NCBI GenBank assembly: GCA_048213135.1
Contig: PS015329.1
Span: 1-47,132, forward strand
Origin: Reclinomonas americana ATCC 50394
Lineage: Eukaryota
Direction: 5' to 3'
Length of the DNA stretch: 47,132 bases
The position numbers and the translations under genes are program-made. Under the pieces are notes generated by a model. The model was not told the origin of the DNA and searched no databases. It saw nothing but the letters and a program-made list of their open reading frames with translations. Shown piece by piece: positions 15,683-20,100 of this stretch. Numbering within the stretch: the stretch's first letter is position 1; each line of letters starts with the position of its first letter.

Positions 15683-18600
15683 ATGTTTGGACAGTTCTCT
15701 GTGAACGTGAGTGCGGCTCATGATTCGTCGCTATCGGTGGTGGTGGAGGGCATGTCGGCCGTGTCCACTCTCGCGGACTTGCTGCGCGAGGCTACACGCT
15801 TGCTGCGTGAGAAGAGTGGAGATGGGGAGATGGAGATCGTGGGGGTGGAGAAGCCGTTGGAGTTCAATATCGCAGTCGTGGGTGGCGTTCCTTTGAGTGG
15901 ATTGGGCATCAAGGCAAACACGCCGCTGGTTGTGCGGGTGACCCTGTCGCCTGCTGGTGCAGCTAGTGCGCGCGGAGCTGCAAGGTGATTGTACATGAGT
16001 CTATGTTCAATACATGAATGTGAACTCACTTTGCCCCCAGTTCATCGACTTTGTCAGAGCGGTTTGTTGTCTGATTGGGCTCCGCGCACTGTTGTCGATG
16101 CCGTCGCTGACATTATGTGCTGCACAGAACGGCTTTCTATCGCATCGACATGGCGTTTGAGGTGGTGGTCGATGCCGTGCGTCTGCGCTGTCAACTTGCG
16201 CTGGCACAGTTCAGTCGCGATCATCCCGACTTTGATGTGCGCGCATGGGTGCCGAGTTTCATGCCTGCTGGCATGGATGTGCCAGCAGTGAAGGAATGGC
16301 GTGCGCGTCATGCTCCACTCCACCCTGTACGAGTCAAGTTATTTGAGGAGAAGCAGCCGGTGGTGCTGGCCTGGCGTGCAGCATTCGACGCCAACCCCTC
16401 GTTCGACCCTCCGTGTGATGGATTCGACACGACGGCACTCACGTCCATCATGTTGTATGGTGGTCTTGTTCAAGATGACGGTCGCAAGATGCTGCTGATT
16501 GACGATGCTACTGAACGAAAGGCTGTGGAGGAGCTCAATCATGTGAGAAAGGGGTTGGCGCACAAGGACCTTGTGATGACGGATGCCACTGTACAGCAGT
16601 ACGTTGGTGAGGGTGGTGTCTTCCTCTCCATCCTCTCTCGACTGCAGTTGACGGCCGATGATCGTGCTCGATTCTCTGCTCGTATCTATGAGGCGCGCTA
16701 CGCTCGACACTTCGTGGACACATTCGAGGAGCGACTGCATCGGCACGCTGTGCATGAGCTCTCGTTCTATCAACACGACGAGAGTGTGCGCAAGGACATG
16801 AAGATGTATGTGCCACTCCTGTGCACTCGTGATCGTGACGTCTCATCTCGCGACAAGATGACGGATCTGTTATCGGAGGTGGATGCGTTCCTCTCCGACA
16901 CCAACACCACCCAGCGTGTACTGGTTCTGTTTGGCAACAGCGGAGCCGGTAAGACCACCACCATGTCGGTGCTGGCCGAGAGATCGTGGCGGCAATGGCA
17001 GACGAGAGAGAGCAGACGAATGCCTGTGCGAGTGCCACTTGGTGCACTGCGTAATGCCGATGAGCGACTGTTGGAGGAGGCACTGGAGCGACTGTCACCC
17101 GAGTTGGGATTCAGTGAGGGGGATGTGCGACGATTGAAGGAGGAACCACTGTTGTTGTTGCTTGACGGGTATGACGAGTTGTACCGTGGTGTAAATCTGT
17201 TTGTCAAGAACCAGCTGGATTTGTGTCGCGATGTGAAGGTGATTATCACGTGTCGTGGTGATTACGCACTGACGGCACTGAGTGGAGTGACGGGGTATCG
17301 ACGGTACTTTGCACCGGTGGATGCACGAGGGCAGTTGTGCATGCAGCAGCTGATGGAGCGACACATTGCGCCGTTCAATAAGGAGCAGATTGAGGAGTAC
17401 TTTGAGCGACTGGTGCAAGTGGGTGATGATGCTGACGACGACGGAGATGTGCGATGGTCGACTGCTGAAGAATACATTCGTGCACTGAAGGGTGTGCATG
17501 GACTGGATGCACTGGTGTCGAATCCGTTCCTCCTGGCAGTGGTGGCTCGTGTGTTGCCGCAATTGGTGGCAAGTAGTGTGCAGCGGCCGACTCGCTGTGA
17601 TGTGTTTGACCGATTCATTCGACAGTGGATTGTGAGGGAGCAGGAGAGGCAAGCGCGTGTTGGTGCGGAGCGTGTGCCGAGTGAGGAGACGTGTCTGGCG
17701 TTCTGCGAGGGACTGGCACGGTTGATGCATGAGAGGAATGTGGTGCGTGTGCCTGCGATGGAGAATCAATCAGTTGATGGTGGAGAGAAAGACGATCACT
17801 TTGGCGGTGCGCCACTCACCTTGCGACGAGTGGAAGAAGGACCGTTTGACAAGTTCCTCGGCCGCAAGAATCAGCATGTGCGAGTGTGCTGTCCGATTGT
17901 GCGACGGTATGGGACGACGCAGTGGGGTTTCGTGCATCTGTCATTGCTGGAGCACTGTGTAGCAAGGCATGTGTTGGCGTGGGAGACGTGGGTTGAGAAG
18001 AGGAGGTTGAAGGTGCAAGATTTGCAGCAGCATGTGTTGTCAGTGCGATTGCTGAACGACAGACCATCGTTGGTGGAGCAGATGGCCGAGGTGGTGCGAC
18101 GGTCTCCTCGGTTGCAATCGAGACTGTGGGAGACGATTGAGCTATCGCGGCGGACGAGTGAGGAGCAAGTGGCGACGGCAGCAGCGAATGCAGCGACGGT
18201 ATTGTGTGTGGCACAAGTGTCGTTCAGTGTGCGAGATTTGTCAGGTGTGCGAGTGAGGGGTGCGGATTTGCGAGATGCAGTGATGCACAGGACGGTGTGG
18301 AGGGGAGCGGATCTGCGAGGGGTGAATGTATGCATGGCGTATGCGAGGAAGGCGGATTTCAGAGGGGCGGATGTCAAGGATGTGAAGTGGCCGAGGAAGC
18401 CGATGGTGGGGCACACGAAAGGGGTCTCGACGGTGGCAGTGACACCCGATGGGCAGTACATTGTGAGTGGCAGTGATGACAAGACTGTACGGGTGTGGTC
18501 GATGGCGAGTGGCAAGGAGATGCGCCGACTGGAAGGCCACACAAGTGAGGTGCGGGCAGTGGCAGTGACTCTCGATGGCCAGCACATTGTGAGTGGCAGT

Positions 18601-20100
18601 TGGGACAAGACTGTACGGGTGTGGTCGGTGGCAAGTGGTGAGGAGGTGCGCCGACTGGAAGGCCACACGGGTGAGGTGCGGGCAGTGGCAGTGACACCCG
18701 ATGGACAGCACATTGTGAGTGGCAGTTGGGACAAGACTGTGCGATTGTGGTCCGTGGCAAGTGGTGAGGAGGTGGTTCGACTGAAAGGCCACGCGAGTCA
18801 GGTGTTTGCAGTGGCAGTCACTCCGGATGGCCAGCTTATTGTGAGCGGCAGTGCGGACAAGACTGTACGGGTGTGGTCGTTAGCGAGTGGCGAGGAGGTG
18901 CGCCGACTGAAAGGGCACACGAGTTGGGTGAATGCAGTGGCATTGACACCCGATGGCCAGCACATCGTGAGTGGCGGTAGTGACAGCACTGTACGAATGT
19001 GGTCGATGGCAAGTGGTGAGGAGGTGCTGCGACTGGGAGGCCACACTGATTCGGTGAGGGCAGTTACAGTGACGCCCGATGGCCTGCTCATTGTGAGTGG
19101 CAGTGCGGACGAGACTGTGCGGGTGTGGTCGGTGGCAAGTGGCGAGGAGGTTCGCCGACTGGAAGGCCACACAGAGCGGATGCGGGCAGTAGCAGTGACA
19201 TCCGATGGTCAGCACATTGTGAGTGGCAGTAGGGACATGACTGTACGGGTGTGGTCGGTGGCAGGTGGCGAGGAGGTGCGACGGTTGGAGGGCCATGCGT
19301 GGCAGGTGTGGGCAGTGACACCCGATGGTCAGTACATTGTGCGTGGCAGTTGGGACAAGACTGTACGGGTGTGGTCGTTGGCAAGTGGTGAGGAGGTGCG
19401 TCGACTGGAAGGCCACACAAGTGAGGTGCGGGCAGTGGCAGTGACACCCGATGGTCAGCACGTTGTGAGCGGCAGTTGGGACAAGACTGTACGAGTGTGG
19501 TCGGTGGCAAGTGGAGAGGAGGTGCGCCGACTGGAAGGCCACACGGATTGGGTGTCTGCAGTGGCAGTGACACCTGATGGGCAGCACATTGTGAGTGGCA
19601 GTGGGGACGAGACTGTACGAGTGTGGTCGGTGGCAAATGGCGAGGAGGTGCGCCGACTGGAAGGTCACACGGATTGGGTGTCTTCAGTGGCAGTGACACC
19701 CGATGGCCAACACATTGTGAGTGGCAGTCGGGACAACACTGTACGGGTGTGGTCGGTGGCAAGTGGCGAGGAGGTGCGCCGACTGGAAGGCCACACGGGT
19801 TCGGTGCGGGAAGTGGCAGTGACACCCGATGGTCAGTACATTGTGAGTGGCAGTTATGACAAGACTGTGCGAGTTTGGTCGCTGACCCATGGCGAAGAGG
19901 TGCAACGGAGTACAGTAGCAGATTTTGAAAGTTGGCTACCGAGGTCATCGGCAACCGCTTGCGTCACTGTCCGACCATCTGGCAAATCCCTTTTCGTGTA
20001 TCGGCGACATCATGAAAGAGAAGTACTGGAGCGAGTTATTGGTCGTTTTGAAGCTGATTTTTCTGGTGTCAAGCAGAGCAAGAACTGTGTTATTCTCTGA
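15683..20100 (+). CDS. NLR-like STAND NTPase: ubiquitin-like / HEPN-like / NACHT / pentapeptide repeats / 12 WD40 / CaaX
   Basis: Exons 15683-15984, 16041-16061 (21-nt micro-exon) and 16128-20100 join in frame through phase-2 GT-AG introns. Walker A GNSGAGKTT (16933-16959), Walker B LLLLDGYDE (~17152-17178), VIITCR sensor motif, NPFLL. Pentapeptide repeats at ~18238-18390 (GADLRDAVM, GADLRGVNV, KADFRGADV). WD40 array 18409-19914. The protein ends in KNCVIL*. Confidence 0.92.
18409..19914 (+). repeat. 12 highly similar 126-nt WD40-coding repeats (8th unit 120 nt)
   Basis: Unit GHTxxVxAVAVTPDGQHIVSGSxDxTVRVWSVASGEEVRRLE is repeated with near-identical DNA. Confidence 0.97.

Follow-up and report, generated by a model that had tools for sequence, protein, structure and literature searches.

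The stretch of DNA analyzed here, 47,132 nucleotides (nt) of Reclinomonas americana ATCC 50394 (assembly GCA_048213135.1, contig PS015329.1, positions 1 to 47,132 of the forward strand; hereafter the window), contains a gene for a long protein that resembles NOD-like receptors (NLRs). The bulk of the gene is one open reading frame (ORF) at 16111..20100 (+), which is 1329 codons long between stops; its first ATG is at 16150 and its stop codon at 20098-20100, and it contains no run of N. Residues of the main protein are counted from ATG 16150. A preliminary description, made from the sequence alone, had proposed that an upstream exon is spliced to this ORF and that the product combines ubiquitin-like, HEPN, NACHT, pentapeptide, and twelve WD40 modules with a C-terminal CaaX box. 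The long NLR-like ORF is real, uninterrupted, and on the plus strand, and NACHT, pentapeptide, and WD40 regions (Pfam matches) as well as the CaaX box (C-terminal CVIL) are all present. With the putative first exon included, the gene would probably encode an NLR-like STAND nucleoside triphosphatase (NTPase) of about 1424 residues. We read it as a self-contained NLR-type sensor-effector with a predicted HEPN-like head and a predicted CaaX anchor, a reading to which we assign a probability of roughly 60%.

The NACHT-pentapeptide core and its family

The nucleotide-binding motifs of the NACHT domain are intact. Walker A motifs have the form GxxxxGK[ST], and Walker B motifs consist of hydrophobic residues followed by D-G-x-D-E; the protein carries GNSGAGKT at residue 262 and LLLLLDGYDE at residue 334. 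Residues G62, G65, G67, K68, D139, D142, and E143 (core numbering) are invariant in an alignment of 15 sequences. The pentapeptide segment downstream matches its Pfam family at residues 696-726 (E 3.5e-5, 23.7 bits, cutoff 20.2).

The protein belongs to a very large NACHT-pentapeptide-WD40 family. A HMMER search of 1.84 billion representatives yielded 2687 proteins at a threshold of E<=1e-3, of which 291 still pass at E<=1e-30, with family matches spanning residues ~205-745, from NACHT through the pentapeptide segment. Among the best 150 of these 2687 proteins, 145 match the pentapeptide segment (residues 673-745), 126 also have WD40 repeats, and 94 possess at least 120 residues upstream. A Pfam scan of 16 relatives without a WD40 match identified Pentapeptide in 14. 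Heads vary within the family: ARM_5 was found in 7 of the 16 relatives scanned and zinc fingers in one, and a kinase is indicated by source name. Named members are Mortierellomycota fungi, while several metagenome proteins are labelled WD40 or kinase by their source. Three pairs of relatives, P0007/P0014, P0039/P0075, and P0109/P0123, each share one contig (59,636 bp, 43,938 bp, and 2,283,502 bp, respectively), and the family thus occurs as clustered paralogs elsewhere.

The NACHT-pentapeptide-WD40 core is a common, catalogued design, and the suggestion that the architecture as a whole is unusual does not hold for this part of the protein. Fusions of HEPN with NACHT or STAND NTPases have also been described, in excerpts of two sources (PMC3710099; preprint 10.1101/2022.07.19.500537). 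What remains of the suggestion concerns the two ends. The N-terminal domain, exon 1, and the tail have no sequence match in any of the best 150 relatives, so that among these proteins the full combination is so far unique to this gene. The HEPN-like head, a possible beta-grasp exon, and a lipid-anchor signal would be the new parts of the protein.

In a FastTree phylogeny of the shared module, which provides local support values only, the protein has a long branch (1.3) and its placement is not starred; its nearest relatives are metagenome proteins bearing the source names WD40 or kinase. These neighbors in the tree, together with the gapped and microsatellite-rich assembly, are what would speak for bacterial contamination, misassembly, or a pseudogene. 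Such an origin is nevertheless very improbable, given 1329 uninterrupted codons without an internal N run and intron-bearing eukaryotic genes flanking the gene on the same contig. The DNA of the window is eukaryotic: it has short GT-AG introns (also in the neighboring genes), many GA/CT/TG microsatellites, and N gaps. The CaaX box, meaningful only in eukaryotes, likewise speaks against a contaminant. Furthermore, the best library match in the HMMER search is a 178-residue peptide derived from an expressed sequence tag (EST) of R. americana (EukProt), identical to our protein at 134 of 147 residues (91%; residues 268-414 in the NACHT core), which indicates that a close homologue is transcribed. 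The gene is an intact nuclear NLR-like gene of an intron-bearing jakobid-type protist. Its features are listed in Table 1.

Table 1. Positions of the features of the NLR-like gene within the window
Feature	Position	Strand	Details
Putative exon 1	15683..15984	+	100 codons plus 2 bases from ATG 15683; coding score; fold possibly beta-grasp-like
Putative intron, GT..AG, 143 nt	15985..16127	+	donor TGCAAG/GTGATT; acceptor CTGCACAG/AAC; CTGAC at 16107
Exon 2	16128..20100	+	rest of coding sequence up to stop; alternative start ATG 16150; single open frame
HEPN-like part of N-terminal domain	16411..16794	+	RKGLAH (Rx4H) at 16546-16563; sub-threshold Pfam match 16510-16590
NACHT NTPase domain	16915..17409	+	Pfam PF05729, residues 256-420, E 6.6e-8, 33 bits, cutoff 26.7
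Pentapeptide-repeat segment	18217..18384	+	about ten A(D/N)LXX-type units; between NACHT arm and WD40 array; Pfam PF00805
Twelve tandem WD40 repeats	18409..19914	+	42 aa each (one of 40); E 4.4e-146; 12 GH...WS units
C-terminal tail with CaaX box	19915..20097	+	CVIL at 20086-20097; ORF ends ...KQSKNCVIL-stop
AATAAA, possible polyadenylation signal	20120..20125	+	20 nt past stop

Probable upstream exon and HEPN-like head

An N-terminal exon of about 100 residues and "both introns" had been part of the preliminary description. We identified one intron, and the exon itself is favored by its coding score and by an in-phase GT-AG boundary. The upstream ORF (15599-15988), which includes the quoted PLSGLGIKANTPLVVRV, is in a different frame from the main ORF. 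The donor TGCAAG/GTGATT directly precedes the stop of this frame (15986-15988), and CTGCACAG/A, ending at 16127, is the sole AG upstream of ATG 16150 in the open main frame; its phase matches that of the donor. A branch-like CTGAC is located 21 nt before the acceptor AG. Removal of 15985-16127 produces a coding sequence of 4275 nt and 1424 residues with a single terminal stop. The removed segment has stops and a negative coding score in all three frames, and its style is the same as that of five introns in a kinase gene at 42.1-43.2 kb.

Coding scores, given in bits per codon, come from a codon model for which the main ORF served as training set. Exon 1 scores 0.369 in frame, compared with -0.25 and -0.46 in the other two frames. 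Among random 100-codon stretches of the window (n = 14764), 0.05% attain this value, and among the open ones (n = 2572), 0.27%. In the sliding profile, the exon-1 phase rises at ~15660, the score drops through the intron, and the main phase rises at ~16110; further upstream of exon 1 the profile displays no other open coding-like stretch. From these sequence features, a splice joining 15984 to 16128, and with it exon 1 to the NACHT exon, is likely.

Translation could instead begin at ATG 16150, in which case the 15683-15988 ORF would belong to a small gene of its own, be an upstream ORF, or not code at all, and the protein would have no ubiquitin-like head. We regard this as rather unlikely. 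It is true that the main ORF has its own ATG 22 nt past the proposed acceptor, that the exon-1 frame has its own stop at 15986-15988, and that exon 1 has neither a homolog nor a Pfam family. The coding score of exon 1 is nevertheless as high as inside the main ORF, and in one frame only; the last possible donor before the stop matches the phase of the only available AG; and the 161 nt from the exon-1 stop to ATG 16150 would leave little room for a second promoter. Additional in-frame ATGs are present at 15599, 15629, and 15659, which would add up to 28 residues before ATG 15683; the DNA at 15599-15682 encodes, in part through TG-microsatellite-like sequence, a hydrophobic stretch, MSVCVCLLALMSLPPGVL, and has a weak coding score of 0.16 bits per codon. 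A second intron with the donor-like AAC/GTGAGT at 15707 was considered and rejected, as it would remove the stretch of highest coding score.

The single-sequence AlphaFold2 (AF2) model of exon 1 has a low mean predicted local distance difference test (pLDDT) value of 53. Counted within the exon 1 translation, it contains strands at residues 5-11 and 15-21, a helix at 30-45, and strands at 49-57, 60-66, and 81-87. The order beta-beta-alpha-beta-beta-beta in this low-confidence model underlies the possible ubiquitin-like fold, for which beta-beta-alpha-beta-beta-(turn)-beta is expected; the fold searches described below gave no ubiquitin-like match. Exon 1 may form a small, possibly beta-grasp head.

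For the domain that follows, HEPN_Swt1 (PF18731) was the sole family listed when residues 81-227 were scanned against 24736 Pfam families (E 0.062, 14 bits, cutoff 27.5). The match covers residues 121-147 and contains R133-KGLA-H138, an Rx4H motif in which both catalytic residues are present. The nearest cluster in Atlas, a language-model search, consists to 99% of HEPN_Swt1 (score 0.81), which is a lead only. HEPN domains form four-helix up-down bundles. In the AF2 model of the domain, unusable at a pLDDT of 39.8, the motif is placed at the end of a helix (residues 126-144) with a loop after it; according to an excerpt of PMC3710099, Rx4-6H lies at the end of HEPN helix 3. The same excerpt reports HEPN domains fused to NACHT/STAND NTPases in animals, Capsaspora, and bacteria, and an active Swt1-type HEPN in the discoban Naegleria. 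The HEPN label proposed earlier is thus backed by a sub-threshold Pfam match centered on RKGLAH and by an Atlas lead to the same family, although it falls below every formal threshold. We predict with reasonable confidence that the N-terminal domain is a HEPN domain of the Swt1 type.

Several results weigh against this view of the two head segments. The 267-residue N-terminal piece has no Pfam match at E<=1, and the 14 bits of PF18731 are below the cutoff of 27.5. By the tool's own statement, the Atlas score of 0.81 is reached by shuffled proteins about one-third of the time. The residue after the motif arginine is K134, a position usually occupied by N, D, or H (PMC3710099, excerpt). Since direct reading of this R/H-rich domain reveals other Rx4-6H strings, such as RHAPLH, the Rx4H motif alone is weak. 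With the exon 1 model (pLDDT 53), neither Foldseek PDB nor VIA-align wide returned a ubiquitin-like match, and a phmmer comparison of exon 1 with the 150 relatives gave a best E of 1.1, which is not convincing. Exon 1 has no Pfam match and no usable Atlas match, and PDB sequence searches with it and with the N-terminal domain returned chance-level rows only. The head domains found nothing in PADLOC, NCBIfam, or PHROGs. For the N-terminal domain, phmmer against the 150 relatives gave a best E of 0.044 in that small set, again not convincing. Word-index homolog searches produced no match for residues 1-745, for residues 1-225 (candidates of 723-2303 aa), or for the domain alone (candidates of 123-392 aa), and a metagenome scan with the domain gave 163 pattern matches, of which 0 were confirmed. 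As no relative of the N-terminal domain or exon 1 was found in these searches, conservation of these parts is unsupported. Within the window, there is no second copy of exon 1, the N-terminal domain, or the tail.

The N-terminal 215 residues might not be a ribonuclease (RNase) but might instead recruit a separate effector once the protein has oligomerized, either as a helical adaptor specific to the lineage or as a HEPN-like module without activity. The lack of a significant family match in Pfam, PDB, PADLOC, NCBIfam, and PHROGs would fit this, as would the lysine after the motif arginine and the free variation of N-terminal domains within the NACHT-pentapeptide-WD40 family. Moreover, Table 1 in PMC3710099, a source consulted in part, lists the Swt1-like HEPN motif as partly conserved and the domains as sometimes inactive. 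On the other side, Pfam and Atlas both name HEPN_Swt1, the residues matched by Pfam include the R and H of Rx4H, and both catalytic residues are there; an adaptor or inactive head is therefore a possibility that we hold to be the less probable one, and we retain the predicted Swt1-type HEPN. The linker between this head and NACHT (16810-16900, residues 221-243) has the lowest coding score of the ORF (-0.19 to -0.22 bits per codon), with a G+C content at third codon positions (GC3) of ~0.70, the highest in that part of the gene.

WD40 repeats, CaaX box, and neighboring genes

The twelve WD40 repeats are closely similar to one another, with mean identities of 82% for nucleotides and 76% for amino acids (range 62-95%), and Tandem Repeats Finder counts 11.7 copies of a 126-nt unit in the array. 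The variation clusters at unit positions 4, 5, 7, 23, and 25 (entropy of at least 1.5 bits). In pairwise comparisons of codons, made between the repeats of one gene and not between alleles, these five columns account for 264 non-synonymous versus 8 synonymous differences, whereas the other 37 columns display 389 versus 454. By WD40 structure, such positions fall just ahead of strand A or on its first residues, or surround the Asp in the B-C turn, and presumably lie on the top face of the propeller. The WD40 repeats show the diversification signature of recognition receptors. In fungal NWD/HET-E repeats, internal conservation is likewise accompanied by positive selection on four positions (PMC4986451, excerpt).

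This pattern bears on the possibility that the protein is a housekeeping scaffold or signaling ATPase, like some animal NACHT-WD40 proteins, and not a defense receptor. The surroundings of the gene are compatible with such a role, since its neighbors are ordinary (M32 carboxypeptidase, ankyrin-kinase, TLC-domain, and PPPDE-like genes) and form no defense-island context. We consider it improbable all the same: homogenized repeats with amino acid-changing variation at five positions are the pattern of fungal non-self recognition NLRs (PMC4986451, excerpt), the long branch and an identity of at most 35% to any relative do not suggest a conserved housekeeping orthologue, and the N-terminal domain is an orphan in searches. 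A receptor function remains the preferred reading.

The protein ends in CVIL, in which the Cys at position -4 is followed by two aliphatic residues (-3 and -2); the stop codon comes immediately after this box. An exact C-terminal C-x-aliphatic-x is present in 12 of the 150 relatives, while 0.28 are expected from the overall frequency of the pattern (P ~3e-16); at each of the offsets 1-30 from the C terminus, only 0-3 matches occur among the same proteins. The CaaX ends of the relatives are CLMM, CFMM, CLIM, CIIS, CSIM, CVIQ, CVLI, CVLM, CLVM, CVIS (twice), and CSIQ, and one of the 12 proteins is from Linnemannia elongata. A single clade of CaaX-ended relatives was rejected; they are scattered on the FastTree phylogeny, where the label requires at least 9 changes. 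In two of the same-contig pairs, P0007/P0014 and P0039/P0075, only one member of each has a CaaX end.

The codon usage of the tail is a point against its being translated. It is the poorest of the ORF end (-0.07 to -0.12 bits per codon; GC3 0.36-0.38), although it is not the lowest in the ORF, as residues 221-243 score lower (-0.19 to -0.22). Despite this weak codon usage, the recurrence of the motif in 12 of 150 relatives makes a chance CVIL unlikely, favors translation of the tail, and argues for selection on the motif. Outside the CaaX box, phmmer with the tail against the 150 relatives gave an unconvincing best E of 0.075. The tail was also tried as a degenerate 13th WD40 repeat, an assignment that was dropped because 28% of 2000 shuffles reach the observed score.

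A leucine in the last position of a CaaX box specifies geranylgeranylation. A literature search on NACHT proteins or NOD-like receptors combined with CaaX or prenylation turned up no report of a NACHT or NLR protein that naturally ends in a CaaX box. It is tempting, if speculative, to assume that lipid-anchored NLRs form a recurrent, undescribed class, in which scattered eukaryotic NACHT-pentapeptide-WD40 proteins, the present one included, would be prenylated and patrol membranes. Here, such a receptor would be fused directly to a HEPN RNase and a beta-grasp head; we hold this to be a doubtful proposal.

The gene on the 3' side, at 20296-20784 (-), is convergent and contains a PPPDE-like ORF (20296-20523) with a weak match to PPPDE/Peptidase_C97 (E 6.5e-4, below cutoff). 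It ends ~190 nt from the stop of the NLR-like gene, so that there is little room for further exons. A multi-exon gene for an M32 carboxypeptidase (Taq-type) with a HETGH motif occupies 25200-28500 (-), and its introns are largely CT/GA low-complexity sequence with N gaps. At 40915-43570 (+), an ankyrin-repeat ORF is followed by a coiled coil and then by a protein-kinase region that at least five short GT-AG introns interrupt; the two may constitute a single ANK-kinase gene. The window begins (1-2000, +) with repeated exons for RNI-type leucine-rich repeats (...GNxIGPxGAxAISQMxSLTTL...), which have a weak LRR_6 match and are separated by GA/CT-rich introns, and it includes at 44130-46800 (+) a TLC (TRAM/LAG1/CLN8) domain gene split by an intron that contains a gap.

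Comparison with known systems and proposed action

With the NACHT-pentapeptide-WD40 STAND proteins of bacteria (NLR-related "bNACHT" proteins) and Mortierellomycota (fungal NLRs; Dyrka et al. 2014, PMC4986451), the protein shares a homologous module composed of a pre-NACHT helix, NACHT, a helical arm, and the pentapeptide segment (residues ~205-745, 28-37% identity), which is followed by WD40 repeats. A variable N-terminal effector position is common to both. An excerpt of a preprint by Kibby et al. (10.1101/2022.07.19.500537) lists HEPN as one of the effectors found on bacterial NACHT proteins and counts pentapeptide repeats and beta-propellers as sensors. In contrast to the bacterial and fungal proteins, the present gene is found in a jakobid-type protist, has an intron, and ends in a CaaX box.

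The Podospora HNWD/NWD genes (het-e, het-d, and het-r), which encode allorecognition receptors, similarly join NACHT to 42-residue WD40 repeats that are kept alike and vary at few positions per repeat. Unlike them, the R. americana gene has no HET domain and possesses a pentapeptide spacer and the CaaX box. Dyrka et al. (2014) define highly conserved repeats by >85% identity across at least 100 aa (PMC4986451, excerpt), and the mean of 76% found here is below this level.

The order of a HEPN-like head before a STAND NTPase is shared with HEPN-NTPase fusions described by Anantharaman et al. (2013; PMC3710099, excerpt), among them DZIP3-like and CXorf38 HEPN with NACHT in animals and Capsaspora and N-terminal HEPN with STAND in bacteria. 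The low-confidence model of our protein also puts an Rx4H at the end of a helix, and its best, sub-threshold match is to the Swt1 family, of which a Swt1/Ava_2192-type HEPN occurs in Naegleria. Membership in this group is unproven: a lysine follows the arginine, and our protein has no Death or CARD domain. In the portion of PMC3710099 available to us, the Swt1-type domains of Naegleria, slime moulds, and Daphnia are "solos", not fused.

Two further comparisons are looser. The exon 1-encoded segment would resemble the Crinkler/CR effectors in placing a small, possibly beta-grasp N-terminal domain ahead of a toxin-type domain; in contrast to these effectors, there is no signal-peptide-like start from ATG 15683, and direct reading of exon 1 reveals neither the LFLAK nor the HVLVxxP motif. 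GBP1, GBP2, and GBP5 are prenylated innate-immune GTPases with a dynamin-like fold. The analogy to the present protein is that of a cytosolic defense NTPase with a C-terminal CaaX box that would direct it to membranes; the NTPase folds are unrelated, and the comparison applies to a possible mode of action, not to kinship.

Taken together, the parts of the protein suggest the following course of events, in which ligand, oligomerization, RNase activity, and prenylation are all predicted. The surface of the WD40 propeller would bind a non-self or altered-self ligand; binding would lift autoinhibition, leading to nucleotide exchange by NACHT and to oligomerization, which would bring the N-terminal domains together. 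Probably a HEPN RNase of the Swt1 type, the N-terminal domain would require two copies to form its active site, so that clustering would turn on RNA cleavage and thereby stop or kill the cell. The first exon would probably contribute the small, possibly beta-grasp head. A geranylgeranyl group on the C-terminal cysteine would tether the receptor to a membrane, which in this bacterivorous flagellate could be the plasma or the phagosomal membrane. The self-contained sensor-effector put forward in the preliminary description is thus a reasonable reading, strengthened by the five hypervariable WD40 positions and by the CaaX ends of 12 of 150 relatives, although its ubiquitin-like and HEPN labels are unproven.

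To our knowledge, NLR-type receptors have been described in animals, plants, fungi, and bacteria but hardly in deep protist lineages, and a literature search combining jakobid and NACHT found no paper. The NACHT-pentapeptide-WD40 design, widespread in bacteria and fungi, is also used in a jakobid-type genome, and the recurrence of the CaaX box suggests that some NLR-like proteins may act from a membrane. Should the head prove to be a HEPN domain with RNase activity, the protein could serve as a compact model of how oligomerization switches on a dimer-dependent nuclease. Should the proposal of a lipid-anchored class be true, the present protein would represent a one-protein, membrane-tethered sense-and-kill system and the first candidate for NLR-type immunity in Discoba.

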